Of a DNA stretch of 64,000 nucleotides, positions 16,305 to 64,000 are shown piece by piece. This stretch comes from Candidatus Roizmanbacteria bacterium (GTDB lineage Bacteria; Patescibacteriota; Microgenomatia; UBA1406; GWC2-37-13). The stretch covers positions 747,063 to 811,062 of the forward strand of contig CAWJTN010000001.1 of assembly GCA_963845895.1 (NCBI GenBank). Direction: 5' to 3'. The notes beneath the pieces are model-generated. The model worked only from the letters and a program-made list of their open reading frames with translations. It made no database searches and had not been told where the DNA came from. Numbering within the stretch: position 1 is the stretch's first letter; each line of letters starts with the position of its first letter. A program made the position numbers and the translations under genes.

Positions 16305-16311
16305 TACATGA

Positions 16312-16929: not shown

Positions 16930-16996
16930 ATTAAAGATCGAAAAATATTTCTGAAAGTTTTTTGGCCAGACGGATCAATTCTGTTATACTATTGGT

Positions 16997-17379: not shown

Positions 17380-17415
17380 AATTTTATTTCCTTACTACTT
17401 GGAGTATATCAAAAT

Positions 17416-17856: not shown

Positions 17857-18126
17857 TGTAGTCCTCCTCGCTGCTTTCAATTATGCCAACTTTTCCATTA
17901 TAATAGGTGAAGCCGAGCTTAGTGAGTTTGTGGTAGGTGAGGATTAAAGAGTCAAATATTGTTTTCCACCTATCCCCGCTATGGCTCACATAAGCCTTAA
18001 ATCTTCAAGAACGAATCAAATTCTTTCCATAACTGAAGCCAATAATATTCCAGTCCCTTTGAGTGTATTTATTGATAGTAATACCTCTAGTGATGTTAAA
18101 GTGATTGTATTATAATAACAGCCTAA

Positions 18127-19655: not shown

Positions 19656-19657
19656 AG

Positions 19658-21037: not shown

Positions 21038-21039
21038 TA

Positions 21040-21216
21040 GGTGGCGAGAAGAAAGGGATCCCTTTCAGGGTGAACCCGACAGCGCGCATGAAGGGAAAGT
21101 TTGATACCGTTTTTCTCGCTTAATAGGAACACCCCCTATTCGGGCTCCTTAAAAGCTCGAAAAAGGTATCTGCTCTTTCCTGAAGAGCACTGGCGGGAAT
21201 GAATTCGAGGCAGAAT
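21040..21216 (-). repeat. GC-rich palindromic element, long form (inner element with expanded loop)
   Basis: The reverse complement starts ATTCTG..TCCCGCCAGTGCTC and ends GCGCGCTGTCGGG..CCACC, like 22061-22135. About 100 extra nt lie between the stem arms. Confidence 0.6.
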
Positions 21217-21235
21217 CTATCAAAAATTTAAAATT

Positions 21236-24480: not shown

Positions 24481-32295
<7,815 letters not shown>

Positions 32296-36834: not shown

Positions 36835-36872
36835 AACTCATATTATAGAGTATTCATGTTAGAATTTAAGGT

Positions 36873-46531: not shown

Positions 46532-46576
46532 GATTTTCTTGACTTAATTATAGTATAGTCATTATAATTATAAGGC

Positions 46577-48134: not shown

Positions 48135-48209
48135 TTTAAAATCTAAATTGCTATGTAGGTTCTGTCGTTAACTCTTGAATTTATTAACATTGTAAATTAT
48201 AGTTAACAT

Positions 48210-48788
48210 ATGGAAAAAACTTTGGTTGTCCTAAAGCCGGATGCGGTTTCCCGGGGACTTATGGGTGAGGTTATTAGGCGATTTGAGGCAACCGGACTTA
48301 AAATAGTTGCTGCAAAGTTTGTCAAGGTTAATGAAGAGTTTGCCGGAAAACATTATCCGGCAGATCGGGAGTCTTTCTTAAGGGGGATGGGGGAGAAGAC
48401 TTTGGAGAACTATAAAAAGTTTGGAGCTGATCCTAAGAAGTTGTTGGGAACTACGGATACATTGGAGATTGGAAAGATGATTAGAGGCTGGTTGGTTAAA
48501 TATATTACTTCTAGTCCTGTTTTGGCTATGGTTTTGGAAGGACCACATGCAGTTGATCTGGTGCGAAAACTCTGCGGCCACACCTTACCGTCACAGTCAG
48601 CCCCAGGGACGATCAGGGGAGACCTGGCTTTTGATTCATCCTACCTGGCAAACACCGGAAAAAGAGCAATCAAAAATCTTGTCCATGCTTCCGGTTCGTT
48701 AGAAGAAGCAGAATACGAAGTCCCCTTATGGTTTAAACCTTCCGAGATCTTCGAGTATGAAAGAGCAGAGGAAAAGGCGATGAGGTGA
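48210..48788 (+). CDS. ndk: Nucleoside-diphosphate kinase (long form with internal insertion)
   Basis: Has KTLVVLKPDAVSRGLMGEVIRRFE..GLKIVAAKF and NLVHASGS, which carries the catalytic His. It is about 40 aa longer than canonical NDKs. Confidence 0.85.
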   Translation: MEKTLVVLKPDAVSRGLMGEVIRRFEATGLKIVAAKFVKVNEEFAGKHYPADRESFLRGMGEKTLENYKKFGADPKKLLGTTDTLEIGKMIRGWLVKYITSSPVLAMVLEGPHAVDLVRKLCGHTLPSQSAPGTIRGDLAFDSSYLANTGKRAIKNLVHASGSLEEAEYEVPLWFKPSEIFEYERAEEKAMR

Positions 48789-48798
48789 ATACATCATT

Positions 48799-48834
48799 CG
48801 AATAAATTCGAATCTTTTCCGAATAATTGCGAAT
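48799..48834 (+). promoter_or_regulatory. Four CGAAT motifs phased at 10-11 bp, just upstream of the -35 box
   Basis: CGAAT at 48799, 48809, 48820 and 48830. Confidence 0.35.
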
Positions 48835-48842: not shown

Positions 48843-48871
48843 TTGATTATTTCTTCGATTACTGCTAGAGT
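48843..48871 (+). promoter_or_regulatory. Promoter TTGATT-N17-TAGAGT, 7 nt before the ATG (leaderless layout)
   Basis: -35 at 48843-48848, -10 at 48866-48871, ATG at 48879. No SD. Confidence 0.5.
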
Positions 48872-48878
48872 GAATCTA

Positions 48879-51800
48879 ATGATGAGATATTTTATCTTTC
48901 CTATATCTTTATTCATTATTCTCTCTTTACTATTAACTGTTTATGCTCAATCTCCAACCATATCAATAGGTAATGGTGATGCCAATGGGGATGGAGTAGT
49001 AAATTCAAAAGATTTACTTACTGTTTTTCAAAACTACAACAAATCATTAGGATCACCAACCGACCAATATAAGGATGGACTAATAAATATGCTAGATCTT
49101 TCAGTTGTCATCTCCTCAATTCTCAATCCCTCTCCAACCTCCACCTCGACTCCAACTCCCACTCCCTCTGGTCCCACTCCGACTCCAGCTCCTGCTGCTT
49201 TTGAATGGGGAACTGTGGCTCATGATGCCCAAAGAACTAGCGCTTCACCAGAAGAAGTAGCCTTAGATGTCAACAATAACGGTAAAGTTATTTGGTATCG
49301 TCCCATCGAAGCCTATATTCCTCAGAACTCCCAAGTGATTGCGGCCAACAATACTCTCTATGTTTCAACAGCCAAAGGCTTGTATGCTTTTAATCCCAGT
49401 ACCGGTGACGTCAAATGGAGATTTGATACGGAAATGCCTCTTGGTAACTCTCCAACGGTAGTTAACAAAGTTGTCTATGTTGGGGGGATGGACAGGAGGC
49501 TTTATGCCTTAAACGCTGATACCGGAACCAAAATCTGGTCTTATGACGGGGCCGGAGCCGGGTACTCAACCAATCCTTTAGTCTTAACCAATACTAGTAA
49601 ACCTATCATCTATATCGGTAACCGTGACGGCAAGTTCTATGCCATTCAAGATAACGGTTCCTCCCCGCAACTGCTTTGGTCCTATCCCACTCAAGGACCT
49701 ATTAATCTCTCAGCCGCCGCTTCTAAAGATAACTCGATAATTTATTTTGCTTCTAATGATAACTACGCCTACGCGCTGAACGCTTCCAGTGGAACCCTGA
49801 AATGGAAATCTTCAAAACTTCCCAGTGCCGGCTTTGATTCCTATTGGCCAGTGGTTTATACCGATTCTGCCAGTGGGAAAGACTACGTAATTTTCGCAGG
49901 GGCCACCGCTTACAATAATGGGAGCAAACCAGGGACCCAATCGGTCATTACCAACCCGGCAACTGGAGCTGTGGCCGACACTTACACCGATGTTGAACTA
50001 CAGGATTTAACCAATAATTATGGCTGGACAACCTTGCCAACCACGACCGCTTTGGGGGGAGATCCCTGGGCTAGCGGCAAAACCATCCTTGATGCCACGT
50101 CTTTTGTGAATTACTTTCAAGCAAAACCCTACCGCCGCACGACTTTCATTCTCAATGCCGCTGATGGAACCGAATACGCCGGTCAGTACGCTCCTTTTGC
50201 TTTTCTGGGAACGCGTTCCGGAAACCGCTATCCACCTGTCGTTGGTCCAGACAGTGTCAGTTCTGCCGGCAACACAATCTATATTAACAACGCTTATACT
50301 CTGTCGGGTGCCCAAGGTTTGGAAATGGGCTGGAAATTCGGCACTCCCTATTTTAGCCTTCAAGGCTTAGGCCAAGCTGTGGATGAACCAGCATCTTACT
50401 CCATGGGCGGAAACATCATTTATCATAACAACTGCTGTGATCGCGTCGCGGATTGGGTAAATGTACTTACGAAAGCTGGCGGAACGTTGTGGACCTATAG
50501 TAACACTCTCTTTCCGGATCCTTCCATCGGTCGAGTAGGTCAAGCTCCCGGCTATGACGAAATGTGGTACAACACAACTGCAGGACTTGACCGTCTCGAC
50601 GCATGGTATGGTGGCTCTAATCAATATGTCTATAACCGAAGCGGGGTATACCATAACCATGGTGACGGCCATCCGATTGTTCCTTATCAAGGAAAATTGT
50701 TTAGCCATCAAAGCAACGCTATTATTGCTTATGGCTCCAGTTCATCAACGGCCTATGGCAATAAAGGAGCTCTACGAATAAATGCGGTTACTGACAGTTC
50801 TATTCCTATCCCTTCAGATTTAACCACCCGGTTGGAAAATGAACTGAAGAAAATGATAGCAGCAGGAGATTTGAAAATTGGCTACTATAACAACGGCCAG
50901 GCTGCTTTGAATGAGATGAAGTTTTACTTTGAAAATCCCGGAGACACTCTTTACACCTTGACCATGGCTTACCCGTTTGTGTTTAATTCCGACCCGACCG
51001 CAAAAGGTCAGCTCTTGAATTACATAAAAGCCGAGTTTGCCGATTACTTTAACCCCACAATGTATTCTTCGCGAGGATGGGATAACACAGTTGGGCTGTC
51101 GGGTAGAGTACGAGCAGCCAGAGAAGCTTTTCCCATTCCCCCTGAAGTTCAAGCTAACATGAATGCTGATCCCAAACGAACACAGGGCTACTATGCCGAT
51201 GACAGTTGGGGCGCCTATACTGGTAGCCTTTATCCTCAGTTTAATTTTTACCCTTTGTGGAAATATGCCCAGTTGGTTCCGACAGACGCCTTAACCGCTT
51301 ACAACTTAGCAAAAGGTAAACTGGATACTCCCGCCAGCAACGGCACTGTTGGAGGGGCGTCCGACCAAATGCTTATGACCTTTCCCTGGCGGCTTAACAA
51401 CTATATTGCCGGATTTATCGGCTTTTTGAATCTCCAAAAACTGGCCGGGAAAGATATGACCGATGTTACCTTAAGAACTTTGGTCACAAACTCTTTAAAC
51501 CATCTGGAAAGTTTAAGGATACAAAGCTTAGCTGTTTTCAACACGACAAGTTTAACTAATCCCAATAATTGCGCTGACTACTTTCCTAACACTGGTTACA
51601 CTAGCCACTGTCGAGAATTCAATATCGGCCGTAACTTTTATTATCTTGTTCCCGAGCTGGGAGACTATCTTAATCAAAATGCTCTGGCAGCTTCTCAAAA
51701 CACCGTTACAGAGCTAACTTATGTTGCTCCTTATTGGTTCCAGGAAGGATTTAACTCGGTTCATGAGGAAGGAATTAAAGAAAATCTTTATGATGTCGAT

Positions 51801-51935
51801 AACTTATTAGCTAAAGCTTACATCCTTAAACAGCCCTACTCCGAAATTGCCAAGTATATTGATGCTCCAAATTTTGCCGTTGGTGATCTTTTATACATGA
51901 ATAATTTAATCGCTGCTCTTCAAGCCTCACCGTAA
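48879..51935 (+). CDS. Secreted protein: signal peptide, dockerin-like module, Pro/Thr linker, PQQ-type beta-propeller repeats, large unassigned C-terminal domain
   Basis: SP ..LLTVYA/QSPT. GDANGDGVVNSKDLL..DQYKDGLINMLDLSVV is a duplicated EF-hand-like dockerin. Propeller blades include LYAFNPSTGDVKWRF, LYALNADTGTKIWSY and AYALNASSGTLKWKS. Confidence 0.85.
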   Translation: MMRYFIFPISLFIILSLLLTVYAQSPTISIGNGDANGDGVVNSKDLLTVFQNYNKSLGSPTDQYKDGLINMLDLSVVISSILNPSPTSTSTPTPTPSGPTPTPAPAAFEWGTVAHDAQRTSASPEEVALDVNNNGKVIWYRPIEAYIPQNSQVIAANNTLYVSTAKGLYAFNPSTGDVKWRFDTEMPLGNSPTVVNKVVYVGGMDRRLYALNADTGTKIWSYDGAGAGYSTNPLVLTNTSKPIIYIGNRDGKFYAIQDNGSSPQLLWSYPTQGPINLSAAASKDNSIIYFASNDNYAYALNASSGTLKWKSSKLPSAGFDSYWPVVYTDSASGKDYVIFAGATAYNNGSKPGTQSVITNPATGAVADTYTDVELQDLTNNYGWTTLPTTTALGGDPWASGKTILDATSFVNYFQAKPYRRTTFILNAADGTEYAGQYAPFAFLGTRSGNRYPPVVGPDSVSSAGNTIYINNAYTLSGAQGLEMGWKFGTPYFSLQGLGQAVDEPASYSMGGNIIYHNNCCDRVADWVNVLTKAGGTLWTYSNTLFPDPSIGRVGQAPGYDEMWYNTTAGLDRLDAWYGGSNQYVYNRSGVYHNHGDGHPIVPYQGKLFSHQSNAIIAYGSSSSTAYGNKGALRINAVTDSSIPIPSDLTTRLENELKKMIAAGDLKIGYYNNGQAALNEMKFYFENPGDTLYTLTMAYPFVFNSDPTAKGQLLNYIKAEFADYFNPTMYSSRGWDNTVGLSGRVRAAREAFPIPPEVQANMNADPKRTQGYYADDSWGAYTGSLYPQFNFYPLWKYAQLVPTDALTAYNLAKGKLDTPASNGTVGGASDQMLMTFPWRLNNYIAGFIGFLNLQKLAGKDMTDVTLRTLVTNSLNHLESLRIQSLAVFNTTSLTNPNNCADYFPNTGYTSHCREFNIGRNFYYLVPELGDYLNQNALAASQNTVTELTYVAPYWFQEGFNSVHEEGIKENLYDVDNLLAKAYILKQPYSEIAKYIDAPNFAVGDLLYMNNLIAALQASP

Positions 51936-51984
51936 AAACATTTAATGTGTAATATTTCTTTCATGGCTCCGAATCGTTTGATAC

Positions 51985-52013
51985 TTGATACTTACTTCTC
52001 TTATTGTTAGATT
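51985..52013 (+). promoter_or_regulatory. Promoter TTGATA-N17-TAGATT, 7 nt before the ATG
   Basis: -35 at 51985-51990, -10 at 52008-52013, ATG at 52021. Confidence 0.5.
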
Positions 52014-52020
52014 ATTATTA

Positions 52021-54087
52021 ATGGTCAGGTTTCTTTTAAAGTTGTCAGCCATTGGTTTGGTTAGTTTTTTTATTATCTCCAATGTTTATGCTCAATCTCC
52101 AACCTCTCAAACTTTAATTAATATCGGTGAAACCAATATTTTAACAGGAGATGATTCTGGAAATGGCAACCTGGTCATTGCCCAAAAAGTTTCCTTGACT
52201 CAGACTGCGACTTTACAAAGCTTAAGCTTCTATGTAAGTGTAGCTAGTGGCCGTTTACAGCTGGGTATCTATAATGATTTAGGAGGTAATCCCAATTCTT
52301 TACTGGCGTCAACTGCAATATTTACTCCAACAGTCGGCTGGAACACCCAAAACGTGACAACTCCGATTCTCCTATCCCCGGGCGATTATTGGCTGGCTTA
52401 TTTTCCGGAGAGTAATAGTTTGGGATTTAAAGCTGATTTTAGCTCAGGTATATGTAAATGGTACAGTACTCCATTTGGTTCAATACCATCAACTTTTTCC
52501 TCTTCTCCTAACAGTTGTGTAACACACTGGTCTTTCTATGCTACTTTGACGACTCAAACCGTCACTCTTTCTCCGACTTCCGTCCCAATCGGTAACAGTG
52601 ATACCAATGGGGATGGTAAGGTGACAACAGCTGATCTTTTACCCATATTTTCAAACTATGGAAAGAATCAAGGATTACCGGTTGATCAATACCAGGATGG
52701 ATACATCAATATGCTGGATGCTCAAGTCGTCATCAATTTCCTGACTGCTCCGACACCGATTCCAACTCGGACTCCCACTCCTATTCCATCTACTTCGACT
52801 CCTTATCCGACACCTTCCGGCAGTCCTGTCTATCCTCTCAAAGCTAGTGCTAACAAACGCTATCTGGTTGATCAGAACAATGTGCCGTTTCTCATGGTGG
52901 GCGATTCACCGCAGGCGATGATTGCCAATTTATCACTGGTTGACGCCGAGATATTTTTAGCAAACCGTCAAAAAGCAGGATTTAATACCATGTGGGTCAA
53001 TTTGTTATGCACGTCTTATACTGGCTGCCCTTATGGTGGTAACACCTATGACGGTATTGCTCCTTTCACCACTCCTGGTGATTTATCCACTCCCAACGAA
53101 GCCTACTTTGCTCGGGCCGATGCCATGATGAATCTGGCAGCCAAATACGGTATGGCGGTGATATTGGATCCAATCGAAACAGGAGGTTGGCTGGGAGTTC
53201 TGCAAAGCAACGGGACGACTAAGGATTACAACTACGGCGTATACCTTGGTAACCGCTACAAGAACTTTCCCAACATCGTCTGGATGAGTGGGAATGATTA
53301 CGCTATAAACTCAAGTAATGATGTGTATGTAAGTGCGGTGGCAAACGGTATCAAGTCCGTCGATGCTAACCACATTCATACTATTGAGTTTGGCGGCGGT
53401 GATACATCTTTGGACGATAGTACTTGGGTGCCAATCGTCTCTCTCAATTCGGCTTATAGCTATAACCCAACCTATGCGGTAGTGCTGCATGGCTACAATC
53501 AGTCCACCATGCCGGTTTTTATGGTCGAAGCCAATTATGAATTTGAGAATAACACGGGAAACGATTACGGAAGCCCATTGCTTTTACGAATGCAGGAATA
53601 TTGGTCGGCTTTGAGCGGCGAGACCGGGCAGCTCTATGGGAACCACTACACATGGCAATTCCTTGGCTCTTGGAAAAGCAATCTGGACACGCCGGGTTCG
53701 CAGCAATTCGGTTATGTGACAAATTTGCTTGCGCCGCGACAGTGGGTGAATCTCGTCCCAGACCAGAACCATACCGTGGTAACAGCAGGGTACGGCACTT
53801 TTTCATCGACGGGCGCAGTGCATACCAATGACTACTTGACCACCGCCAGAACTCCTGATGGAAAGTTAGTTATCGCCTATATGCCTACCAGTAGGACGAT
53901 TACGGTGAATATGGTCCAAATGACAGGGGGGACTTCAGTTACGGCCCGATGGTATGACCCCACCAATGGAACCTACTCAACAATTTCAGGATCTCCCTTT
54001 GGGAATACCGGCTCACGGCAGTTTACTCCTCTGGGCAACAACAGTGGGGGAGACGGTGATTGGGTGTTAGTACTGGAGGCAAATTAG
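52021..54087 (+). CDS. Secreted protein: unassigned beta-sandwich-like N-domain, dockerin-like module, Pro/Thr linker, DUF4038 (GH140-like) domain + 'putative collagen-binding' C-terminal domain
   Basis: SP ..SNVYA/QSPT, then GNSDTNGDGKVTTADLL..DQYQDGYINMLDAQVV. YPLKASANKRYLVDQNNVPFLMVGDSPQAM and ARWYDPTNGTYSTISGSPF..DGDWVLVLEA match my memory of DUF4038 and Collagen_bind_2. Confidence 0.75.
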   Translation: MVRFLLKLSAIGLVSFFIISNVYAQSPTSQTLINIGETNILTGDDSGNGNLVIAQKVSLTQTATLQSLSFYVSVASGRLQLGIYNDLGGNPNSLLASTAIFTPTVGWNTQNVTTPILLSPGDYWLAYFPESNSLGFKADFSSGICKWYSTPFGSIPSTFSSSPNSCVTHWSFYATLTTQTVTLSPTSVPIGNSDTNGDGKVTTADLLPIFSNYGKNQGLPVDQYQDGYINMLDAQVVINFLTAPTPIPTRTPTPIPSTSTPYPTPSGSPVYPLKASANKRYLVDQNNVPFLMVGDSPQAMIANLSLVDAEIFLANRQKAGFNTMWVNLLCTSYTGCPYGGNTYDGIAPFTTPGDLSTPNEAYFARADAMMNLAAKYGMAVILDPIETGGWLGVLQSNGTTKDYNYGVYLGNRYKNFPNIVWMSGNDYAINSSNDVYVSAVANGIKSVDANHIHTIEFGGGDTSLDDSTWVPIVSLNSAYSYNPTYAVVLHGYNQSTMPVFMVEANYEFENNTGNDYGSPLLLRMQEYWSALSGETGQLYGNHYTWQFLGSWKSNLDTPGSQQFGYVTNLLAPRQWVNLVPDQNHTVVTAGYGTFSSTGAVHTNDYLTTARTPDGKLVIAYMPTSRTITVNMVQMTGGTSVTARWYDPTNGTYSTISGSPFGNTGSRQFTPLGNNSGGDGDWVLVLEAN

Positions 54088-54088
54088 T

Positions 54089-54117
54089 TTGATTTTATCT
54101 GTTAATTATCATTTAAT
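54089..54117 (+). promoter_or_regulatory. Promoter TTGATT-N17-TTTAAT, 7 nt before the ATG
   Basis: The -35 at 54089-54094 starts 1 nt after the upstream stop codon. -10 at 54112-54117, ATG at 54125. Confidence 0.45.
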
Positions 54118-54124
54118 TATTTTA

Positions 54125-56242
54125 ATGATCAAGAAATTTATTTTTCTTTTTTCATTCTTTTTTATTCTTTATTCATCTGTTCACGCCCAATCCCCCACAC
54201 CTTATACAGGTTCTCCCTTCAACGGTCCCCATAATATTCCAGGAACAATTCAGATTGAAGACTATGATAATGGTGGAGAAGGGGTAGCATATCATGATCT
54301 AGACTCAACCAATCAGGGAGGACAATACAGGACCAATGAAGGAGTGGATATTGAGGCAACGGGAGATACGGAAGGAGGATATGATGTGGGATGGATTCAA
54401 GCAGGGGAATGGTTAAAGTATACGGTTAATGTTACTCAAACTGGTACCTATACCCTCGATCTTCGGGTAGCCAATACCAATAGTGGAGGAGTAATGCATA
54501 TGGAGGTTGACGGAGTAAATGTAACTAGTAACCTATCCATTCCCCAAACTGGAGGCTGGCAGACCTGGACTACCATTACCTCTCCCTCTTTTTCCCTTTC
54601 CCAAGGTCCTCATATCTTAAAGCTCTCGTTTGACACTAATTCCTCAAATGGTTATGTAGGAAACGTAAACTATTTCACCTTCACTCTTTCTGGTCCCTCT
54701 CCAACTCCAACCATTCCCATAGGCAATGGTGATGCTAACCTTGACGGTAAGGTAGATACCCAAGATCTTATGATAGTTCTTAAAAACTATGGAGCATCAG
54801 CAAGTTCGGTAGGAGGAGCAAACCAGTATGGAGATAATATTGTTAATATGTTTGACTTTAATGTTGTTCTTAATGCTATTCAAAATCCCTCTCCCACCCC
54901 AACTCGTACTCCAACCCCCACCACTCAACCACCGACCTCAACTCCTTTCCCAACACCAAGCGGTGGTCCGGTCTACCCACTGAAAGCCAGCTCAAACAAA
55001 CGTTTTTTAGTCGACCAGAATAATACACCGTTTTTAATTGCCGGTGATTCCGCTCATGAGCTCATTACTAATGTCTCTGAGACTGATGTGGATACCTATC
55101 TGGCTTCACGAGAGGCTGCGGGTATCAATTCTATTTGGGTACAGCTTCTTTGTACTTGGTCCGGACGATCTAACGGTAGTACTTATGACGGAATTGTCCC
55201 TTTCACCACAACAGGAGATTTATCAACGCCAAACGAAGCCTATTTTAAACGTGTCGATGACATTCTTAACTTAGCGGCAAAACACCACATCACGGTTTTT
55301 CTTGATCCCACAGAAACTGCAGACTGGTTAGATACTTTTAAGACTAATGGCACTACCAAGGATTTTAATTACGGTGTTTATCTGGGAAACCGCTATAAAA
55401 ATTTTCCCAATATTGTCTGGCAGAACGGCAATGATTTTCAAACCTGGAGCAATGCAAGCGACGATGCTGTAGTTTTAGCTGTGGCTAACGGGATTAAATC
55501 TGTTGACACTAATCATATTCAAACTATAGAACTGGATTACCCAACCAGCGCTTCATTAAACGATTCCTCTTGGGCTCCGATTGTCAGTCTAGATTCTGCT
55601 TACAGCTACTACTCTACCTATGACCAGGTATTGCGGGAATACAATCGCTCGAGTTTTATCCCGGTTTATTTTATTGAAGGAGTCTATGAATATCAGGGAT
55701 ACATGGGAGGCTACACTGGACCCCGTGAACTGCGGGCTCAAGAATACTGGACCCAACTATCAGGAAGTACGGGGCAACTCTATGGTAATGCTAATTTGTT
55801 TCCCTTTCCGAGCGGTTGGAACTCCCCCGGTTGGGATACAACTCCTGGCTTTATCCAGTTTACCTACTGGAATAATTTCTTTAAAAACAGCGCTTGGTAC
55901 AATTTAGTTCCAGACCAAAATCACACTGTAGTTACAGCAGGTTATGGCACGTATCAGTCTATTACTGCTCAAGTATTAGGCAACACGAGTGACTACGCAA
56001 CCACAGCCAGAACAACTGATGGAACCTTGATTGTTTCCTACATGCCAACTTCAAGGACGATTACAGTTGACATGACTAAACTCTCAGGAAGTGCTGCTGC
56101 CAGATGGTATGATCCAACAAATGGTACGTACACGACAATTTCTGGATCACCTTTTGCCAATACCGGATCAAGACAATTTACTCCTCCTGGTAATAACAGT
56201 GGGGGAGACAGTGATTGGGTATTGGTATTGCAGATAGATTAG
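54125..56242 (+). CDS. Secreted protein: CBM6-like module, dockerin-like module, Pro/Thr linker, DUF4038 (GH140-like) + 'putative collagen-binding' domain
   Basis: SP ..SSVHA/QSPT. IQIEDYDNGGEGVAYHD..GWIQAGEWLKYTVNV..GGWQTWTT is CBM6/35-like. The C-terminal two-thirds is paralogous to 52021-54087. Confidence 0.8.
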   Translation: MIKKFIFLFSFFFILYSSVHAQSPTPYTGSPFNGPHNIPGTIQIEDYDNGGEGVAYHDLDSTNQGGQYRTNEGVDIEATGDTEGGYDVGWIQAGEWLKYTVNVTQTGTYTLDLRVANTNSGGVMHMEVDGVNVTSNLSIPQTGGWQTWTTITSPSFSLSQGPHILKLSFDTNSSNGYVGNVNYFTFTLSGPSPTPTIPIGNGDANLDGKVDTQDLMIVLKNYGASASSVGGANQYGDNIVNMFDFNVVLNAIQNPSPTPTRTPTPTTQPPTSTPFPTPSGGPVYPLKASSNKRFLVDQNNTPFLIAGDSAHELITNVSETDVDTYLASREAAGINSIWVQLLCTWSGRSNGSTYDGIVPFTTTGDLSTPNEAYFKRVDDILNLAAKHHITVFLDPTETADWLDTFKTNGTTKDFNYGVYLGNRYKNFPNIVWQNGNDFQTWSNASDDAVVLAVANGIKSVDTNHIQTIELDYPTSASLNDSSWAPIVSLDSAYSYYSTYDQVLREYNRSSFIPVYFIEGVYEYQGYMGGYTGPRELRAQEYWTQLSGSTGQLYGNANLFPFPSGWNSPGWDTTPGFIQFTYWNNFFKNSAWYNLVPDQNHTVVTAGYGTYQSITAQVLGNTSDYATTARTTDGTLIVSYMPTSRTITVDMTKLSGSAAARWYDPTNGTYTTISGSPFANTGSRQFTPPGNNSGGDSDWVLVLQID

Positions 56243-56243
56243 T

Positions 56244-56271
56244 TTGACTTAATCTATAGATGTAGTTTAAT
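56244..56271 (+). promoter_or_regulatory. Promoter TTGACT-N16-TTTAAT, 7 nt before the ATG
   Basis: -35 at 56244-56249, directly after the upstream stop. -10 at 56266-56271, ATG at 56279. Confidence 0.45.
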
Positions 56272-56278
56272 TATATTA

Positions 56279-59272
56279 ATGATCAAGAAAGTTATTTTTC
56301 TTTTCTCTTTATTAGTTATTCTAACTTCTAGTTTCTTTTTTCTATCTTCTGTTCACGCCCAATCTCCAACAATATCAATCGGTAACGGTGATGCCAACGG
56401 AGATGGAGTAGTAAATTCAAAAGATTTACTTGCTGTTTTTCAAAACTACAACAAATCATTAGGAGTACCAACTGACCAATACAAGGATGGACTAATAAAT
56501 ATGTTAGATCTTTCAGTTGTCATCTCCTCAATCCTTAATCCTTCTCCAACCCCTTTACCTCCAACAGTAACTAACATCCCAACCCCAACAGGTCCAACAG
56601 CAACTCCAGCTCCTATTGGAAGTGACTGGCCAATGGGCGGAGCCAATCCCCAGAGGACTTCTCATAACTCTGTTGAAGTATCGGGAAATCTTTCGGTTGA
56701 GTGGTATCACGTCATTGATCCCTACATCGATAACAAGACTCAGGTTATTGCTACAGGAGGAAAATTATACCTTTCTACTTCTAAGGGACTGTATGCCTTT
56801 GATGCCACGAATGGTAACCAATTATGGGTTTGTGGAACAGAGTTACCGTTAAGTAACTCTCCAACGGTTGCCACCATCAACGGCAAAAGCGTTGCCTATG
56901 CGGGTGGTTTAGACCACCGTATCCATGCGGTTGACACAAGTTCCGGTACAAACCTTTCAGGATACACATCTTATGAAGCCGGAGGGGGTTTTGAAGTTAA
57001 CCCTCTGATTGTCAATAATGTTATCTATGCCGGCAACCGTGACGGCTACTTCTATGCTTTGGATGCGGTAACCGGCAACCTGAAATGGAAATATCAGACC
57101 GAAGGGCCAATCAGATTCTCGGCGGCCATGTCCAATGACAACTCTACCGTCTATTTTGCCTCCAATGATTCCTATGCCTATGCCCTAAATACATCCAATG
57201 GCACTCTGAAGTGGAAATCGCAAAAACTTCCCGGGGCAGGCTTTGACCAATATTGGCCGGTCGTTTACACCGATCAGAGTTCGGGTAAGGATTATGTTAT
57301 CTTCTCGGGTTCAAAGAAAGCTGCCTGGATTTGGTGGGATGATTTCATGCCCTATCCAAATATGTACCATGAAGAGAATTATCAAATTAATGACCAATAC
57401 GGAAGCATCTGTACGGCAATCAGTGGTGATAATCTCGACTGTGCACACACGTCCAGCTACTTTGCCGGCAAACCCTACAAACGCCATTTCTTTGTGTTAA
57501 ATGCTGCTACCGGTCAGGAGTTTACTAACCCTTATCCGCCGATTAACTGGGGCATTGTCACCAAAAACGGCAACAAACACCCTCCGGTTGTTGGTGCAGA
57601 CAATCAGTTATATACAGGTATTGCTTATAACTATGGGGGTAATTCTGGCGCTAACGGTGGTATGGCTGCCTGGAAGTTTGGCACAAGCCAAATTACAAAA
57701 TTAAGTAACTTTGCTGGGGCGGCTGATGAACCTTATGCCTTTTCTTCAGGAGGCAACTACATTTATTTTTTTGAAGGGGTCAATGGGGATGGAGGATACG
57801 CTGGCACGTTAGATATTACCAAAACTTCGGGGAGCAATTATTCCGGCTGGCAGGATCCCAGAAGTGTGCCCAATGCTAGTGCTAAGTACACTAGCCTTAA
57901 CCTGGCAGGAAAATTCGGCGGAAATAATGGAGTCTATCTTTATTTTGACGGTATCACCAATCAAACCCCCGTTCCCTACAACAATAAAATATATCTGATC
58001 AACGGTAACGTCCTTTTTGCTTTGAGTACTGCTGGAGGGGCCAAACAACTTCCGACCGCTACAGCACAAAACGCTCCGGCAGCCACGATCGATGTAACGG
58101 TTGCGGACTTACAGCAAAAACTGGCAACAGAAGTGCAAAAGATATTGTCAGCCGGACACCTGCGGCCGGGATTTATGGATTCGGGACTGGTGGGGGCATC
58201 TTTCGATAATCATAATTCCCCACTTATCCCCGGCAATCACCTGAATGAATATTTCGCCACTCCCGGGGAAACACTCTCGACACTGGCTTCGACACTTCCT
58301 TACTTATCATCGTCTCTTCAGACTCAAGTGAAACAATATTTACAAAGCGAAGAAACAAATTATCCGGTGGAAACCGACGCTCACATCGGTTGGAGGAACG
58401 GGGCCCAGCGGGAAGTTTATGATGACCCCCCGGAGATTTCCTCCGTGGCCAACAGGACTTTTGGCGACGGAAACGGGATTATCAATGGTATCTCCGTCAA
58501 CGGTGACAATCTTTGGGTCGCCAGTGACCCCAGAACCACAATTGTTCACTTCAGTAACTTAAACATCGGTTCATTCCTCCCCGACGCTTCCTATGGCGCC
58601 TGGAAATACGCGGTTGCCGAAGGATTTAACCAATCTCAAGTCCTGGCGCTATTTAACAACATGAAGGGCAAACTCCAGAAAGCCGGCTCCGGAAATGATA
58701 TGACCGATGCCAACCTGATTGCTTATCCGTATATCCTGGATCAATACATTAATGGGTATCGTGGTTATCTGGAACTTGAGAAATTAGCTGGAGTAACAGC
58801 CGATATTACTCAAAGCAGTCAGTGGTGTGAGTTTGCTCGGTTGGTCTCTCTCAAGCTTAATAATTTCAACGAAAACACTCCTTTAGACAATAGTTGGAAT
58901 AATAACAATGTATTGAACGTGGCTAGAAATTTTATGTACATGACTCCGGAGTTGGCAAGTCTTATGATTAACGGATTCTCGACCAGCACCGGTTGCAACT
59001 ATTCAGCCCCTTCTGTTTTAAGTAAGGTGCAAACAGCCATATCTAACTATCAGATTCTTGAGCCATTCTGGTTTGTCAGCAAATACGACCGCACCTATGA
59101 TGAGGGAATATTTCAACCTCTTTATGATATTCCGGCTTTATTCCAGACAAGGGCTTATGTTTTGCAACAACCGTTTTCTGAATTGGTCAAGTACCTTGAT
59201 GAGCCCGCATTTTACCGAGGTGACCTCTTCTATATCCAAAATCTGGTAGCAGCTCTTCAAGCACCACAGTAG
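56279..59272 (+). CDS. Secreted dockerin-like + PQQ-type beta-propeller protein, paralogue 2
   Basis: SP ..SSVHA/QSPT and the same dockerin cassette. LYAFDATNGNQLWV, FYALDAVTGNLKWKY and AYALNTSNGTLKWKS are propeller blades. The C-terminal domain ends ..FYIQNLVAALQAPQ. Confidence 0.85.
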   Translation: MIKKVIFLFSLLVILTSSFFFLSSVHAQSPTISIGNGDANGDGVVNSKDLLAVFQNYNKSLGVPTDQYKDGLINMLDLSVVISSILNPSPTPLPPTVTNIPTPTGPTATPAPIGSDWPMGGANPQRTSHNSVEVSGNLSVEWYHVIDPYIDNKTQVIATGGKLYLSTSKGLYAFDATNGNQLWVCGTELPLSNSPTVATINGKSVAYAGGLDHRIHAVDTSSGTNLSGYTSYEAGGGFEVNPLIVNNVIYAGNRDGYFYALDAVTGNLKWKYQTEGPIRFSAAMSNDNSTVYFASNDSYAYALNTSNGTLKWKSQKLPGAGFDQYWPVVYTDQSSGKDYVIFSGSKKAAWIWWDDFMPYPNMYHEENYQINDQYGSICTAISGDNLDCAHTSSYFAGKPYKRHFFVLNAATGQEFTNPYPPINWGIVTKNGNKHPPVVGADNQLYTGIAYNYGGNSGANGGMAAWKFGTSQITKLSNFAGAADEPYAFSSGGNYIYFFEGVNGDGGYAGTLDITKTSGSNYSGWQDPRSVPNASAKYTSLNLAGKFGGNNGVYLYFDGITNQTPVPYNNKIYLINGNVLFALSTAGGAKQLPTATAQNAPAATIDVTVADLQQKLATEVQKILSAGHLRPGFMDSGLVGASFDNHNSPLIPGNHLNEYFATPGETLSTLASTLPYLSSSLQTQVKQYLQSEETNYPVETDAHIGWRNGAQREVYDDPPEISSVANRTFGDGNGIINGISVNGDNLWVASDPRTTIVHFSNLNIGSFLPDASYGAWKYAVAEGFNQSQVLALFNNMKGKLQKAGSGNDMTDANLIAYPYILDQYINGYRGYLELEKLAGVTADITQSSQWCEFARLVSLKLNNFNENTPLDNSWNNNNVLNVARNFMYMTPELASLMINGFSTSTGCNYSAPSVLSKVQTAISNYQILEPFWFVSKYDRTYDEGIFQPLYDIPALFQTRAYVLQQPFSELVKYLDEPAFYRGDLFYIQNLVAALQAPQ

Positions 59273-59282
59273 ATACATTATG

Positions 59283-59324
59283 CGAATAAATGCGAATCAA
59301 CAAACACAGCGAATCATTGCGAAT
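59283..59324 (+). promoter_or_regulatory. Four CGAAT motifs (spacing 10, 17, 10 bp), the last overlapping the -35 box
   Basis: CGAAT at 59283, 59293, 59310 and 59320. Confidence 0.35.
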
Positions 59325-59345
59325 CTGTAAACTTAGTTTTATACT
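59317..59345 (+). promoter_or_regulatory. Promoter TTGCGA-N17-TATACT, 8 nt before the ATG
   Basis: -35 at 59317-59322, -10 at 59340-59345, ATG at 59354. Confidence 0.45.
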
Positions 59346-59353
59346 CTTTATTA

Positions 59354-62302
59354 ATGAAGAAATTTATTTTTCTTTTTTCATTCTTTATTATTCTTTCTTC
59401 ACTATTAACTGTTTCTGCTCAAAGTCCAACTATAGTCATAGGTAACGGTGATGCCAATGGAGATGGAGTAGTAAATTCAAAAGATTTACTTGCTGTTTTT
59501 CAAAATTACAACAAATCATTAGGATTACCAACTGATCAATACGGAGATGGATTAGTTAATATGGTTGATCTTGGAGTTGTCATAAATTCAATCCTTAATC
59601 CTTCTCCAACGCCAACCAACATACCAACACCAACAGGACCAACACCAACACCAGGACCAGTTGGCAGTGACTGGTCCATGGCTGCTGCTAATCCCCAAAG
59701 GACATCTCATAACTCTGTTGAGGTGTCAGGCAATCTTTCAGTTGAGTGGTACCGTCCGTTTGGTCCATACATCGACCAAAAAACACAAGTAATAGCCACA
59801 AATGGACAAATTTTTGTGTCAACCTCTAAAGGTCTTTATGCCATTAATGCTTCAACTGGGACGCAACAATGGGTCTTTGGAACCGATATGCCTCTCGGCA
59901 ACGCTCCAACAATTGCAACGGTAAATGGAAAATTAGTTGCTTATGTCGGGGGAATGGACCATAGACTCTATGCAGTTGATGTTGCAGCGAGTAATACGGC
60001 CGGTTCAGGCGTGCTCTTAGCAGGATTCACCCCTTATGAAGCCGGTGTTGGATATGAAACCAACCCCTTAGTAATTAATGATTCATTTACTAGTAATCAA
60101 CCGGTGGTTTTTATTGGCAACCGTGACAGCAATTTCTACGCTTTTAATGCGACAACCGGAGCCAAAATTTGGAGTTACACAACCGGTGGACCGATCAGAT
60201 TTTCTGCTGCCTATAAAAATGGCGTTGTTTATTTCGGTGCCGATGACAATGTCGCCTATGCCTTAAACGTCACCGACGGCTCACTGAAATGGAAAACACC
60301 AACACCGGGGACAACCGGAGCCCTGCCCGGAGTGGGGTTCTCCACTTATTGGCCGGTTATCTATAACAATCCTGGAGACGGAAAGGACTACGTCATGTTT
60401 AGCGGATCAAAAAAGGCAACTTGGCTCTGGTTTGAGGACACAAACTACTCTGTTAACTACAATTACGAAACATATTCAGACCCAAACAACATGTTCAACG
60501 GCAACAACGGATGCTCACTGGTAAGTGGTAATACGTATAACTGTGCGATTATCTCGAACTATTTTGCCAACAAAAAAGATCAGCGGCATTTTTTCGTTTT
60601 TGACGCTTCAACCGGGTCAGAAATGAGTAATCCTTATCCGCCGGTCAATTGGGCTGGGGTGACCAGAGGAGGGAATAAGTTTCCGCCGATCGTTAGTGGA
60701 GATAACAAAGTCTACACGTTCATTGGTTTTAATAATGCCGGACCAAACTCGACGACCGGAACGCAGGGGTGGATTTCTGGATGGAATTTCGGAACAACTC
60801 AAACGACCAGAATTTACAATCCTTCGAGTGGCGCAGGGGATGAACCAGTCGCTTTTACTAGTGGCGGGAATTTAATTTATTGGGGCGAAGGCATTAATGC
60901 CGACACTTTCGGTACTGTGGACATTACTAAACCAGTGGGGTCTAATAGGTATACCTGGGATCCGCGAAGCGTGTCGAGCATTGATTTAAGTTCGTTATTT
61001 GGTGGCGCTAATGGGGTCTATAGTTACTTAGACGGAACGGGAAATTTTAGCCCGATCCCATATAGTGGCCGTTTATATATCATTGTTGGTAATACCTTGG
61101 TAGCTTTGAGTAGCAACGGTGGAGCAAGAAATGCTGGAACAAGCGCTGTTCCTTCGAGTCAGCAAACTCAACCAATTTCGATCACAACTTCTGATCTGCA
61201 GACAAAGTTGGGGACAGAAATTCAAAAAATAATCAGTGCTGGACATCTTCGCCCGGGCTTTATGGATTCGGGTATTCTGGCGGGGGATATGGATGACCAC
61301 CATGACGGAAACATTTTGCCCGGCAATCAGCTGGAACAATATTTCACTGCTCCTGGTCAAACATTGGCCACTTTGGCGTCGGCAATGCCGTATCTTTCGG
61401 CCAGTTTGCAGAGTCAACTGAAAACTTATTTACAGACAGAAGAGACAAATTATCCTGTGGAAACAATCACCGATATTGGTTGGAGAAATGGAGCCAAACG
61501 GGAAATTTATGATGATACTTCAGAAATCACCGCCTACCTGACTTGGTCTGACAGCGTGAATTATCCAACCGCGACAACCCCAAGAAATTATTACCGCAAC
61601 TACAACAATCTAGCCGTTATACCGGTCAATAATTCTAATGTTCTTCTCCCGGATGCATTTTACGGAGCATGGAAATATGCCGTGGCTGAGGGATTTACTG
61701 CTGCTCAGGCGAAAGCGCTTTTTGACAAGATGAGCGGTAAATTACCAGTCGCGGGGACGAATAATGACATGACTAACGCTAATTTGATTACCTATCCTTA
61801 CATTCTGAATGAATATATTGACGGGTATAGAGGTTACGTTGAGCTGGAAAAGTTATCCGGCTATACAACAGACATCTCTCAAAGTTCTAAATACGCAGAA
61901 TATACCAGGTTGGTTAATTTAAGAATTAATAACTTTAGCGAAGCTTCAAATTTTGGGACGGGTTGGGATTATAACCATGCCATGAATGTCTCTCGGAATT
62001 TTATGTACATGACACCGGAGTTGGCAGCAATTCTTCGGACAAATAAACTTTCAGCCGTTCAGACAGCGATAAACGATTATCAGGTTTTGGAACCTTATTG
62101 GTTTGTTTCAAAATATGACCGAACTTATGGAGAAGCTGTATTTCAACCGCTTTATGATCACGCTGCACTTTTTCAAGCGATGGCCTATGTTCTCCAGCAG
62201 CCGCAAAGTACCCTGGTGAAGTATCTTGACGAACCGGCTTTCTATCAAGGTGACCTCTTCTACATTCAAAATCTGGTGGCTGCTCTTCAAGCACCACAGT
62301 AG
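59354..62302 (+). CDS. Secreted dockerin-like + PQQ-type beta-propeller protein, paralogue 3
   Basis: SP ..LTVSA/QSPT and the dockerin cassette. LYAINASTGTQQWVF, FYAFNATTGAKIWSY and AYALNVTDGSLKWKT are propeller blades. The C-terminus is near-identical to paralogue 2 (..FYIQNLVAALQAPQ). Confidence 0.85.
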   Translation: MKKFIFLFSFFIILSSLLTVSAQSPTIVIGNGDANGDGVVNSKDLLAVFQNYNKSLGLPTDQYGDGLVNMVDLGVVINSILNPSPTPTNIPTPTGPTPTPGPVGSDWSMAAANPQRTSHNSVEVSGNLSVEWYRPFGPYIDQKTQVIATNGQIFVSTSKGLYAINASTGTQQWVFGTDMPLGNAPTIATVNGKLVAYVGGMDHRLYAVDVAASNTAGSGVLLAGFTPYEAGVGYETNPLVINDSFTSNQPVVFIGNRDSNFYAFNATTGAKIWSYTTGGPIRFSAAYKNGVVYFGADDNVAYALNVTDGSLKWKTPTPGTTGALPGVGFSTYWPVIYNNPGDGKDYVMFSGSKKATWLWFEDTNYSVNYNYETYSDPNNMFNGNNGCSLVSGNTYNCAIISNYFANKKDQRHFFVFDASTGSEMSNPYPPVNWAGVTRGGNKFPPIVSGDNKVYTFIGFNNAGPNSTTGTQGWISGWNFGTTQTTRIYNPSSGAGDEPVAFTSGGNLIYWGEGINADTFGTVDITKPVGSNRYTWDPRSVSSIDLSSLFGGANGVYSYLDGTGNFSPIPYSGRLYIIVGNTLVALSSNGGARNAGTSAVPSSQQTQPISITTSDLQTKLGTEIQKIISAGHLRPGFMDSGILAGDMDDHHDGNILPGNQLEQYFTAPGQTLATLASAMPYLSASLQSQLKTYLQTEETNYPVETITDIGWRNGAKREIYDDTSEITAYLTWSDSVNYPTATTPRNYYRNYNNLAVIPVNNSNVLLPDAFYGAWKYAVAEGFTAAQAKALFDKMSGKLPVAGTNNDMTNANLITYPYILNEYIDGYRGYVELEKLSGYTTDISQSSKYAEYTRLVNLRINNFSEASNFGTGWDYNHAMNVSRNFMYMTPELAAILRTNKLSAVQTAINDYQVLEPYWFVSKYDRTYGEAVFQPLYDHAALFQAMAYVLQQPQSTLVKYLDEPAFYQGDLFYIQNLVAALQAPQ

Positions 62303-62312
62303 ATGCATTATG

Positions 62313-62362
62313 CGAATAATCGCGAATCAGAATACCATTCGAATTTTTACGAATTCGCGAAT
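62313..62362 (+). promoter_or_regulatory. Five CGAAT motifs (spacing 10, 17, 10, 8 bp) abutting the -35 box
   Basis: CGAAT at 62313, 62323, 62340, 62350 and 62358. Confidence 0.35.
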
Positions 62363-62391
62363 TTGACTACTTACTAAATTATTGCTAGATT
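62363..62391 (+). promoter_or_regulatory. Promoter TTGACT-N17-TAGATT, 7 nt before the ATG
   Basis: -35 at 62363-62368, -10 at 62386-62391, ATG at 62399. Confidence 0.5.
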
Positions 62392-62398
62392 TAGAGTA

Positions 62399-64000
62399 AT
62401 GAAAAAGTTTGTCTTTTTTGTTCTCTTCTTTTTCATAATTATCTATCCTTTATTTTTTATTAATCATACTTCTTCTGTTTCTGCTCAATCTCCAACAATT
62501 GCCATTGGTAACGGTGATGCCAACTCTGATGGGAAGGTAGACGCAAAAGACATCCTTACCGAGATCCTAAACTATGGTAAAACAAATCAAACACTACCTC
62601 TTGATCAGTATGGAGATGGACTAATTAACATGGTTGATGTTGGAGAGGTTATTTATCGAATTTTTGCTCCTGCCGCCACTCCCACGCCAACCAATGCTCC
62701 AACACCAACGACGATTACACCCCCGCCGGCCAATACTTATAGTATCGGAGCACCCGACAGCAAGCTTTTTTATGGATCGTTTGAAGGCTTTGGAGCCGAG
62801 TTTGATCCATTTGTCTGGAATCCAAATGTCAATCCCGGAGTAACCCAAGCCGACTGGAATTTGATCACCGGTCGAATCCAAGAGATGCAGCTGCCCTTTG
62901 TCAGGATATGGATCCAGCTTTACTGGATGCTTAAATCGGCAGATCTTACACAGTGGGACTACAACAATGCTCGTATGCAGTCAGTCTATAAATATCTTGA
63001 TTTTGCTTGTCAAAACAATATCGACGTCATCTTAAACGACTGGAATTGGTCTTTCTGGCCAAGCTATGGTTTCTACAACGGTAACTCGGCCGATTCACGC
63101 TATACGCAAGGTATTGCCGATTACTTAAAATATTTAATTCAGACTAAAGGCTACAGCTGTATTAAATATTTTATCCTTGGCAATGAGAGTGATAATGAAT
63201 TTATCGGGTCGGGCAAGTCATTTAATGATTTTGTTATCATGCAGCAAAATATGGATCAAGCCTTGAGAAATGATGGCATCCGTGACCAAATCAAGTTTAT
63301 CGGTCCAGATCCTGCTTGTTGTTCAGGTCTGTACACGCAAACTCTGCAAAGCTCCCTCCACTCGACTTTTGACGGTTATGACGTACATATTTATCAGGAT
63401 CCAAGCCTAATAGCATCAGGTGATCTTTGGTGGAGGATTGAACAGTACAGAGACGATTACACAAGAAATTATTCACCAGATCCGGCAACTGATATGAGTA
63501 AACCACATTTTGTCACTGAGGCAGGGAGGACCACTGGAGTTTCTGATGCTTTTGACGGGGCTTTAGATATGGCTGATTATGGAACCATAGCTCTTTCAAC
63601 AAAAGTCCAGGGAGTGAGCGAATGGAATATGTTCGATGAATATTATGATCAGGAACATAGCGATACGGAGAGTCATACTACGATACCCTGGGGTTTGTGG
63701 AAATATAAAGATTCTAACTGGTCGCTTCGACCGTGGAGTCATACCTGGGGATTACTTGTGCGGTTTGCTCCGAAAGGCAGCATCCGTGCACCGGTTGTTT
63801 ACCCAGGACAATCCAAAGCTACGCCAAATACTGATACGGATTCAGGTCATCCGCCAACCGGTTCACTAAGATTGGCTGCCTTAAAACGACCAGACGGTAA
63901 ATGGAGTATATTTATCGTTAATAGAAATTCGTCAGCCACCACAATCACTATTAGATTGCCTGATTCAAGTACACACCAGTTTACTAAATATTTGGCAACA
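62399..64000 (+). CDS. Secreted dockerin-like + Pro/Thr linker + clan-A (GH5/GH30-like) glycoside hydrolase, 3' end beyond the window
   Basis: Not in the ORF track because no stop lies in the window. My hand translation is open from ATG 62399 to 64000: MKKFVFFVLFF..SVSAQSPTIAIGNGDANSDGKVDAKDIL..DQYGDGLINMVDVGEV. FILGNESDNEF is NE acid/base-like and HFVTEAGR is TE nucleophile-like. Confidence 0.8.
   Translation, partial: MKKFVFFVLFFFIIIYPLFFINHTSSVSAQSPTIAIGNGDANSDGKVDAKDILTEILNYGKTNQTLPLDQYGDGLINMVDVGEVIYRIFAPAATPTPTNAPTPTTITPPPANTYSIGAPDSKLFYGSFEGFGAEFDPFVWNPNVNPGVTQADWNLITGRIQEMQLPFVRIWIQLYWMLKSADLTQWDYNNARMQSVYKYLDFACQNNIDVILNDWNWSFWPSYGFYNGNSADSRYTQGIADYLKYLIQTKGYSCIKYFILGNESDNEFIGSGKSFNDFVIMQQNMDQALRNDGIRDQIKFIGPDPACCSGLYTQTLQSSLHSTFDGYDVHIYQDPSLIASGDLWWRIEQYRDDYTRNYSPDPATDMSKPHFVTEAGRTTGVSDAFDGALDMADYGTIALSTKVQGVSEWNMFDEYYDQEHSDTESHTTIPWGLWKYKDSNWSLRPWSHTWGLLVRFAPKGSIRAPVVYPGQSKATPNTDTDSGHPPTGSLRLAALKRPDGKWSIFIVNRNSSATTITIRLPDSSTHQFTKYLAT

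Follow-up and report, generated by a model that had tools for sequence, protein, structure and literature searches.

A 64,000-nucleotide (nt) stretch of DNA from Candidatus Roizmanbacteria (Microgenomates, in the candidate phyla radiation (CPR), or Patescibacteria), referred to here as the window, carries six tandem genes for predicted secreted, dockerin-bearing proteins, which we call g1 to g6. Every one of them has a -35/-10-like element that ends 7 or 8 nt before its ATG. We consider it likely that these elements are sigma-70-type promoters placed at leaderless distance, and that this layout is the default of the lineage for the first genes of transcription units and not a specific property of secreted proteins. 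The six genes have a GC (guanine plus cytosine) content of 43-45% each, compared with about 35% for the genome, in a lineage of 35-40%. Translation and Pfam analysis gave the following array.

48879-51935, forward strand: g1, 1018 amino acids; signal peptide, N-terminal type I dockerin, PQQ-like beta-propeller and about 600 amino acids without a Pfam family
52021-54087, forward strand: g2, 688 amino acids; signal peptide, internal dockerin, apiosidase-like glycoside hydrolase domain (PF13204), Collagen_bind_2
54125-56242, forward strand: g3, 705 amino acids; signal peptide, CBM6/35, weak dockerin, apiosidase-like glycoside hydrolase domain, Collagen_bind_2
56279-59272, forward strand: g4, 997 amino acids; signal peptide, dockerin, PQQ-like propeller
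59354-62302, forward strand: g5, 982 amino acids; signal peptide, dockerin, PQQ-like propeller
62399-64000, forward strand: g6, running off the end of the window; signal peptide, weak dockerin, GH30-C-like protein

The N-termini are alike in all six proteins: the ATG is followed by a K/R-rich stretch, a hydrophobic stretch and a signal peptide end that reads AQSPT. A public protein, P0001 (1018 amino acids), is identical to g1 (100% identity) and has the identical ATG start; it is encoded on a contig of 1,231,892 bp. The sites in front of the six genes are as follows.

48843-48881, forward strand: candidate g1 promoter, TTGATT (48843-48848), N17, TAGAGT (48866-48871), N7, ATG at 48879; TGc extended -10 (TG at 48863-48864)
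51985-52023, forward strand: candidate g2 promoter, TTGATA (51985-51990), N17 with TGt, TAGATT (52008-52013), N7, ATG at 52021
54089-54127, forward strand: g3 promoter-like site, TTGATT (54089-54094), N17, TTTAAT (54112-54117), N7, ATG at 54125
56244-56281, forward strand: g4 promoter-like site, TTGACT (56244-56249), N16, TTTAAT (56266-56271), N7, ATG at 56279
59317-59356, forward strand: candidate g5 promoter, TTGCGA (59317-59322, within the last CGAAT repeat described below), N17, TATACT (59340-59345), N8, ATG at 59354
62363-62401, forward strand: candidate g6 promoter, TTGACT (62363-62368), N17 with TGc, TAGATT (62386-62391), N7, ATG at 62399

All six strings had been pointed out in an earlier reading made from the sequence only (the sequence-only reading), and all are present. 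A -35-type TTGnnn lies 16-17 nt from the -10 in 6/6 genes, and g1, g2 and g6 additionally have a TGn extended -10. The hexamer has the form TANNNT at 6-8 nt from the ATG in g1, g2, g5 and g6. TTTAAT-N7 of g3 and g4 matches TATAAT at five of six positions, without the A at position 2. The base directly before the ATG is a conserved A (TA-ATG at all six starts). None of GGAG, GAGG, AGGA or AAGGA occurs within 25 nt of any of the six ATGs, so the array genes lack a Shine-Dalgarno (SD) sequence, as the sequence-only reading had said. Its strong SDs elsewhere are also real: ggaggtg before the gene at 153-596 (reverse strand), aaaggagg before 13862 and gaggagg before the ATG at 17856 (reverse strand). 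The two cases in which it had placed the -35 one base past the preceding stop are g3 (TAG at 54085-54087) and g4 (TAG at 56240-56242), where the intergenic gaps (g2-g3 and g3-g4) are 36-37 nt. At 48843, 51985 and 54089 the spacing adds up to 36 nt (6+17+6+7), which puts the TTG of the -35 in frame with the ATG. Therefore, mechanical lists of open reading frames (ORFs) begin g1, g2 and g3 at a false TTG, 12 codons too early; these in-frame TTGs upstream of the array ATGs are the -35 boxes themselves.

Could such matches be chance in AT-rich intergenic DNA? Consensus promoter matches as such are barely above shuffle, with 52 found and 39.2 +/- 5.8 expected at 46-64 kb, which is AT-rich. The non-random information is the position relative to the ATG. 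We used a strict rule: at least 4/6 matches to TTGACA, 16-18 nt, at least 4/6 matches to TATAAT ending in T, and a spacer of 6-8 nt to the ATG. It was passed by all six array genes; among the other called genes the proportion was 13/73, and among 1430 internal ATGs it was 1.6%. When each array upstream region was shuffled by mononucleotides, 3-7% of the shuffles passed (product about 1e-8). This position relative to the ATG makes chance scarcely credible as an explanation.

The same layout was found well outside the array. It is present at 9 of the 36 other genes of the window, and the following examples show that it is not confined to one type of protein.

48175-48212, forward strand: candidate promoter of NDK, a cytoplasmic protein; TTGAAT-N17-TATAGT-N6-ATG, ATG at 48210
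10459-11100, reverse strand: LexA-like repressor; -10-like hexamer 6-8 nt before the ATG
35896-36834, reverse strand: beta-lactamase-family gene; TATAAT-N7-ATG
36873, forward strand: PMT_2 glycosyltransferase; TAGAAT-N7-ATG
39692-41557, reverse strand: PMT_2 glycosyltransferase; TATAAT-N7-ATG
46577, forward strand: LytR_C gene; TTGACT-N18-TATAAT-N8-ATG
47441: ORF; TAAAAT-N6-ATG
36835-36872, no strand: divergent intergenic region of 38 nt; hexamer-N7-ATG on each strand

We then extended the set of called genes to 73 non-dockerin genes, by adding to the window three Roizmanbacteria loci obtained via NDK orthologues (L005 from the complete genome CP066689.1, L008 and L009). In these loci, TATAAT-like boxes 6-8 nt before the ATG were seen at LeuRS, NUDIX, NDK, MreB, NIF3, glyoxalase, radical SAM, M16 peptidase, A24 peptidase and other genes. 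TANNNT at a spacer of 6-8 nt precedes 30 of the 73 called genes (41%), compared with 5.8% of 1126 internal ATGs. The spacer histogram of the called genes peaks at 6 nt (12 genes) and 7 nt (14 genes), with about 3 elsewhere. A wider survey gave the same picture. A metagenome scan with NDK yielded 80 more loci, of which 318 kb with an NDK at least 61% identical was kept. Starts were set by a rule that is blind to upstream motifs, namely the first ATG of ORFs of at least 120 amino acids (n=247). The spacer again peaks at 6 nt (39) and 7 nt (31) over a background of about 8-10, and 36% of the 247 ORFs are positive versus 7.0% of all ATG trinucleotides (p about 1e-39), a lineage-wide peak that also speaks against chance. 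SD tetramers were found at 6% of the ORF starts, with a background of 8.4%; the SD is not detectably enriched or used at gene starts in the sampled Roizmanbacteria-like contigs. An artefact of the first-ATG rule, in which in-frame stops mimic TANNNT, was considered and rejected, because the spacer histogram has no 3-nt periodicity and the out-of-frame spacer 7 is as enriched as 6.

These counts bear on the proposal of the sequence-only reading that leaderless expression is a dedicated mode of secreted, dockerin-bearing genes. It had itself named a -10/ATG spacing that is not class-specific as the outcome against it, and this is what we find: in the window, the spacing also occurs at genes for cytoplasmic and membrane proteins (NDK, the LexA-like repressor, the beta-lactamase-family protein, both PMT_2 proteins and LytR_C). 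The strict rule, passed by 6/6 array genes and 13/73 others, speaks for a dedicated mode. Against it stand the proportions of positive genes in both sets, the 16 of 31 NDK upstream regions described below, the many non-secreted genes with the spacing (NDK, LexA-like, LeuRS, MreB, NUDIX, NIF3, glyoxalase, radical SAM and others), and two relatives of the array, a homologous array (L010) and a homologue (L011), that are not leaderless. We regard a dedicated mode as very improbable, and the idea of a special expression mode for secreted proteins is to be dropped. What survives of the proposal is the leaderless part, a plausible prediction that is well supported by the geometry and by the comparison with the lineage and with a foreign array (L004). 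Particular to the array itself are the separate promoter of each gene and a CGAAT motif before three of the promoters.

If the hexamers are not confined to one class of genes, they might still be something other than promoters. A TA-rich hexamer could serve as a non-SD ribosome-binding signal, as in GeneMarkS-2 group B (e.g., Bacteroidetes). The hexamer is also found at three tightly spaced same-strand genes, and the lack of SD enrichment means that operon-internal genes need some other translational signal; both points favour such a role. However, a TTG lies exactly 17 nt upstream in 9 of 36 hexamer-positive genes, with 0-2 at each other spacing from 10 to 25 nt, and this sharp peak argues that the hexamers are promoters and not AT-rich ribosome sites. 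The hexamer is more frequent at divergent genes (12/22) and at same-strand genes whose gap is 25 nt or wider (19/41) than at tightly packed internal genes (3/15), and its consensus is TATAAT-like, ending in T. The 38-nt divergent region at 36835-36872 is too short for a promoter plus a leader: a leader fits on neither side. The -35 phasing and the bias in gene position are thus consistent with a bipartite sigma-70 promoter rather than a translational enhancer, and we judge a ribosome signal to be quite improbable. ATG is the start codon in 35 of the 36 hexamer-positive genes. Short divergent regions, namely 36835-36872 (38 nt) and 46532-46576 (45 nt), hold back-to-back promoters, and at such lengths each -35 must fall inside or beside the first codons of the opposite gene. 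The gene at 45353-46531 (reverse strand) has TATAAT 15 nt from its ATG, implying a short leader.

The promoter reading is also consistent with what is conserved at orthologous genes. NDK is suitable for this comparison, with a start that is alignable across orthologues (MEQ/K-TL-V/I-V) and closest named relatives in Candidatus Roizmanbacteria. TANNNT lies 6-8 nt from the start in 16 of the 31 distinct NDK upstream regions of the Roizmanbacteria-like clade and 9-12 nt from it in a further 9, and an SD-like tetramer occurs in only 2. Several of these regions read TTGCAA-N17-hexamer-N7-ATG with divergent spacer sequences. In the survey of ORF starts, a sister clade (NDK 51-53% identical) showed the reverse pattern, with the SD at 36% and TANNNT at 16%. 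Upstream of NDK itself, relatives at 51-58% identity carry a 22-27-nt leader containing AAGGA or, alternatively, aaaggagg right before the ATG; in the sister-clade loci L041, L044-L046 and L057-L060, a TATAAT or TAGAAT box is followed by the 22-27-nt AAGGA leader, or aaaggagg stands at the ATG. Since sister clades have SD-containing leaders at the same orthologue, the leaderless layout would have arisen, or been lost, within this part of the CPR. The array itself can be compared in the same way. Two copies of TTGCTT-N17-TAGAGT-N7-ATG occur in L004, which at 65% protein identity is the closest foreign array. In L011, a homologue from Anaerolineae, an aggag SD precedes the ATG by 6 nt, and the neighbouring genes are built in the same way. 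L010 (1-17088), from more distant Patescibacteria, is the operon version of the same gene family: it has at least five PQQ-propeller/dockerin genes with C-terminal dockerins and overlapping stop and start (ATGA), with GGGG(T/G)AA before them. Thus, the leaderless-type geometry tracks the host lineage, not the gene family.

We propose that transcription and translation of the array genes would proceed as follows. RNA polymerase would start either on the first base of the ATG or on the conserved A one base before it, giving an mRNA with a 0-1-nt leader and without an SD. The ribosome with initiator tRNA would then bind the 5'-terminal AUG directly, by the leaderless route. By default, the first gene of a transcription unit in Roizmanbacteria would be expressed in this way, and the dockerin array would be notable just for having one promoter per gene, copied along with segmental gene duplications. 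We infer the transcription start site and the mode of translation at the array genes from the geometry, the lack of an SD, the ATG starts, the enrichment in the lineage, the phasing of the -35 and the conservation at orthologues.

Another possibility is that one or more leadered polycistronic transcripts span the array, with internal SD-independent starts on AT-rich unstructured RNA (assisted by bS1 or by re-initiation) and with the hexamers being incidental. A terminator scan found no intrinsic terminator between any of the six genes, so it gives no usable argument for monocistronic units. The short gaps before g3 and g4 and their TTTAAT also fit a polycistronic transcript, and clearly operon-internal genes of the window, e.g., at 3252, 16312 and 32298 (reverse strand), likewise have no SD. 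On the other side are the -35 at 16-17 nt in every array gene, with an extended -10 in three, the phasing of TTG at 17 nt in the lineage together with the depletion of the motif at operon-internal genes, and the persistence of the geometry in L004 and in NDK orthologues despite differing spacer sequences. Taken over the whole array, we consider polycistronic expression of this kind unlikely. It may apply to g3 and g4 alone, with the other array genes leaderless: g3 is a weaker promoter candidate, and both g3 and g4 may be read from the g2 promoter, additionally or instead.

Several points weigh against leaderless sigma-70-type promoters as the lineage default. First, the six sites are not independent samples, as their upstream regions are paralogous: those of g3 and g4 to each other, and those of g1, g5 and g6 likewise mutually homologous. 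Second, TTTAAT of g3 and g4 lacks the near-essential A at -11, and the gaps there are merely 36-37 nt. Third, as no terminator separates the six genes, read-through polycistronic transcripts likely coexist with individual starts. Fourth, the array promoters are better formed than those of the average gene; by the strict rule the difference (6/6 versus 13/73) has a Fisher p of about 1e-4, with a comparison set that includes operon-internal genes. Finally, the case for predicted leaderless expression rests throughout on sequence geometry.

Leaderless mRNAs themselves are well known. Classical examples, such as lambda cI from PRM and Tn1721 tetR, start at the A of the AUG, have no SD and require a 5'-terminal AUG. 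They are isolated cases in SD-using genomes, whereas in Roizmanbacteria the arrangement is common. The signature closest to ours is that of GeneMarkS-2 group C, in which the Pribnow box TANNNT lies 6-8 nt from the starts of first operon genes and 25-50% of transcripts are predicted to be leaderless; this group is frequent in Actinobacteria and Deinococcus-Thermus (PMC6028130). Roizmanbacteria share the signature with Mycobacterium tuberculosis, Deinococcus deserti, most Actinobacteria and Deinococcus-Thermus, with 34-41% of genes positive here and peaks at spacers of 6-7 nt. Two things are different. According to the MetaGeneMark-2 preprint, group C genomes with genetic code 11 almost all have high GC, and the low-GC ones are of the Mycoplasma type with code 4, whereas Roizmanbacteria are CPR members with 35-40% GC and code 11. 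In addition, the remaining genes of group C use the SD, whereas the sampled Roizmanbacteria contigs show no SD enrichment. The low-GC Mycoplasma of group C resemble Roizmanbacteria in having small, AT-rich, reduced genomes, and 30-60% of their transcripts are predicted to be leaderless, but they belong to a different phylum and use genetic code 4. A survey of CPR ribosomes reported anti-SD loss only in some Parcubacteria, a short bS1 across the CPR and loss of uL30 and bL9, and did not mention leaderless mRNAs (PMC9297842). Our literature search found no paper that ties leaderless genes, and none that ties dockerin arrays, to CPR/Patescibacteria and CPR, respectively. In summary, the mechanism is known from the group C signature, and the lineage, low-GC Roizmanbacteria, was previously unreported for it.

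We see about an even chance that a broader statement holds: that Roizmanbacteria, and perhaps the wider Microgenomates, are low-GC code-11 CPR bacteria in which leaderless initiation is the main mode, the native SD is nearly unused, the switch took place within the CPR, and the CGAAT repeats act as operators. Even under a mainly leaderless reading, SD-led genes exist in the genome. The SD leaders of sister clades at the same NDK orthologue suggest an evolutionary switch of initiation inside the CPR, which is possibly linked to reduced ribosomes (short bS1, loss of uL30 and bL9). With leaderless-type promoters at about a third of its genes and no SD enrichment, this CPR clade, beside SD-using sister clades, offers a concrete and testable case of such a switch. 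There is also a practical side, as gene finders built around an SD will place starts wrongly in metagenome-assembled genomes of Roizmanbacteria.

The array-specific trait is that every gene of this co-directional tandem array keeps a full -35/-10 promoter layout of its own, in place of an operon layout. For two of the junctions, the sequence-only reading had concluded that the promoter was duplicated together with the gene. These junctions, of g3 and g4, are indeed homologous, which follows from g2 and g3, the genes before them, being paralogues whose 3' ends are similar. The duplicated unit therefore began in the 3' end of the glycoside hydrolase gene, took in the promoter and reached into the signal peptide that comes next. 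The array promoters thus appear to have spread through segmental duplications of genes. Three of them are accompanied by direct repeats.

48796-48834, forward strand: CGAAT direct-repeat array, two CGAAT-N5-CGAAT pairs 21 nt apart, with 8 nt between the array and the g1 -35
59283-59324, forward strand: CGAAT direct-repeat array, two pairs 27 nt apart, overlapping the g5 -35
62313-62362, forward strand: CGAAT direct-repeat array, two pairs and a fifth copy, abutting the g6 -35

CGAAT-N5-CGAAT, which has a 10-nt period, occurs seven times in the window, compared with 0.07 expected, and exclusively upstream of g1, g5 and g6. The 92 related loci that we fetched contain no match to it. These arrays may be regulator-binding sites. 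Pho-box-type activator sites are direct repeats of 10-11-bp period, bound by the OmpR/PhoB family, that abut or replace the -35. The CGAAT arrays resemble them in three ways: the repeats are direct, their period is 10 nt, and they reach up to or overlap the -35 of g1, g5 and g6; the CGAAT sequence is unrelated to known boxes, and the likeness is a lead only, drawn from the repeat architecture alone. One candidate role for these arrays is that of operators through which a dedicated regulator would control a dockerin/glycoside-hydrolase regulon.

The proteins of the array recall known cellulosomal enzymes. In clostridial cellulosome clusters, the genes are largely organised as operons and preceded by an SD, and the dockerins are C-terminal. 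The array is similar in that its genes stand in tandem, point the same way and encode secreted enzymes with type I dockerins, among them glycoside hydrolases, as well as carbohydrate-binding CBM modules; unlike those clusters, it has N-terminal or internal dockerins, a promoter for each gene and no cohesin domain among the window proteins scanned by Pfam. PF00963 is carried by one distant homologue, P0064. Dockerin_1 (PF00404) scored above the Pfam cut-off of 22.9 bits in g1 (31.6), g2 (26.4), g4 (28.0) and g5 (26.5), and below it in g3 (19.9) and g6 (19.2). g1, g4 and g5 are mutual paralogues of about 1000 amino acids, each with a long C-terminal part without a Pfam family, and P0003 and P0004 are two further paralogues. 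The dockerin modules of g1, g4 and g5 (48945-49130, 56357-56542 and 59417-59602) are 83-92% identical in DNA, compared with 66-67% for the remainder of the genes, which suggests homogenisation by gene conversion or a strong constraint to fit one cohesin partner. A contig scan with dockerin-peptide patterns from the PQQ-dockerin alignment gave just three dockerin matches, none of them relevant. Homologues of the array are mostly from Anaerolineae (about 44% identity), and its GC content is 8-10 points above the flanks; together, these suggest that the dockerin array was acquired by transfer.

Gene order points to the same part of the window as variable. In L005, L008 and L009 the genes for M16 peptidase, A24 prepilin peptidase and NDK adjoin one another or almost do, with sortase, PEGA and MreB coming next in L005 and L008. 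The window differs: some 26 kb separates A24 (M16/A24 region at 19652-22021) from NDK (48210-48788), and the dockerin array comes after NDK. This stretch of about 26 kb contains the collagen-like giant described below, a TPR protein, PMT_2 genes, an rve transposase (41566-42678) and sugar-modification genes. Both this stretch and the dockerin array appear to be variable islands.

Besides these islands, the region 150-18000 stands out. It holds all strong GGAGG SDs of the window and has a slightly higher GC content (0.39-0.42). It encodes an EcoRI-like methylase, GmrSD, DUF2130, a LexA/S24-like repressor, DUF3892 and two type IV secretion system (T4SS) pilins, and further PrgI, a VirB4/TraG-like ATPase, an M23 peptidase and a PLD nuclease. 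The region may represent the T4SS locus of the CPR or else an integrated element of the conjugative type, with an initiation style unlike that of the native genes. The giant ORF at 24481-32295 (forward strand) encodes 2604 amino acids, and its core of 56% GC (26-30 kb) is made up of G-X-Y repeats of the collagen triple-helix type (Pfam Collagen, E = 3.6e-173). This GC-rich block was considered as rRNA and rejected, as Rfam gave no match there and the block is the collagen-repeat core; Rfam and tRNA scans of the whole window gave no match either. The T4SS pilins, PrgI, the VirB4/TraG-like ATPase and the prepilin peptidase are typical CPR content, and the long ORFs of the window are uninterrupted under genetic code 11.

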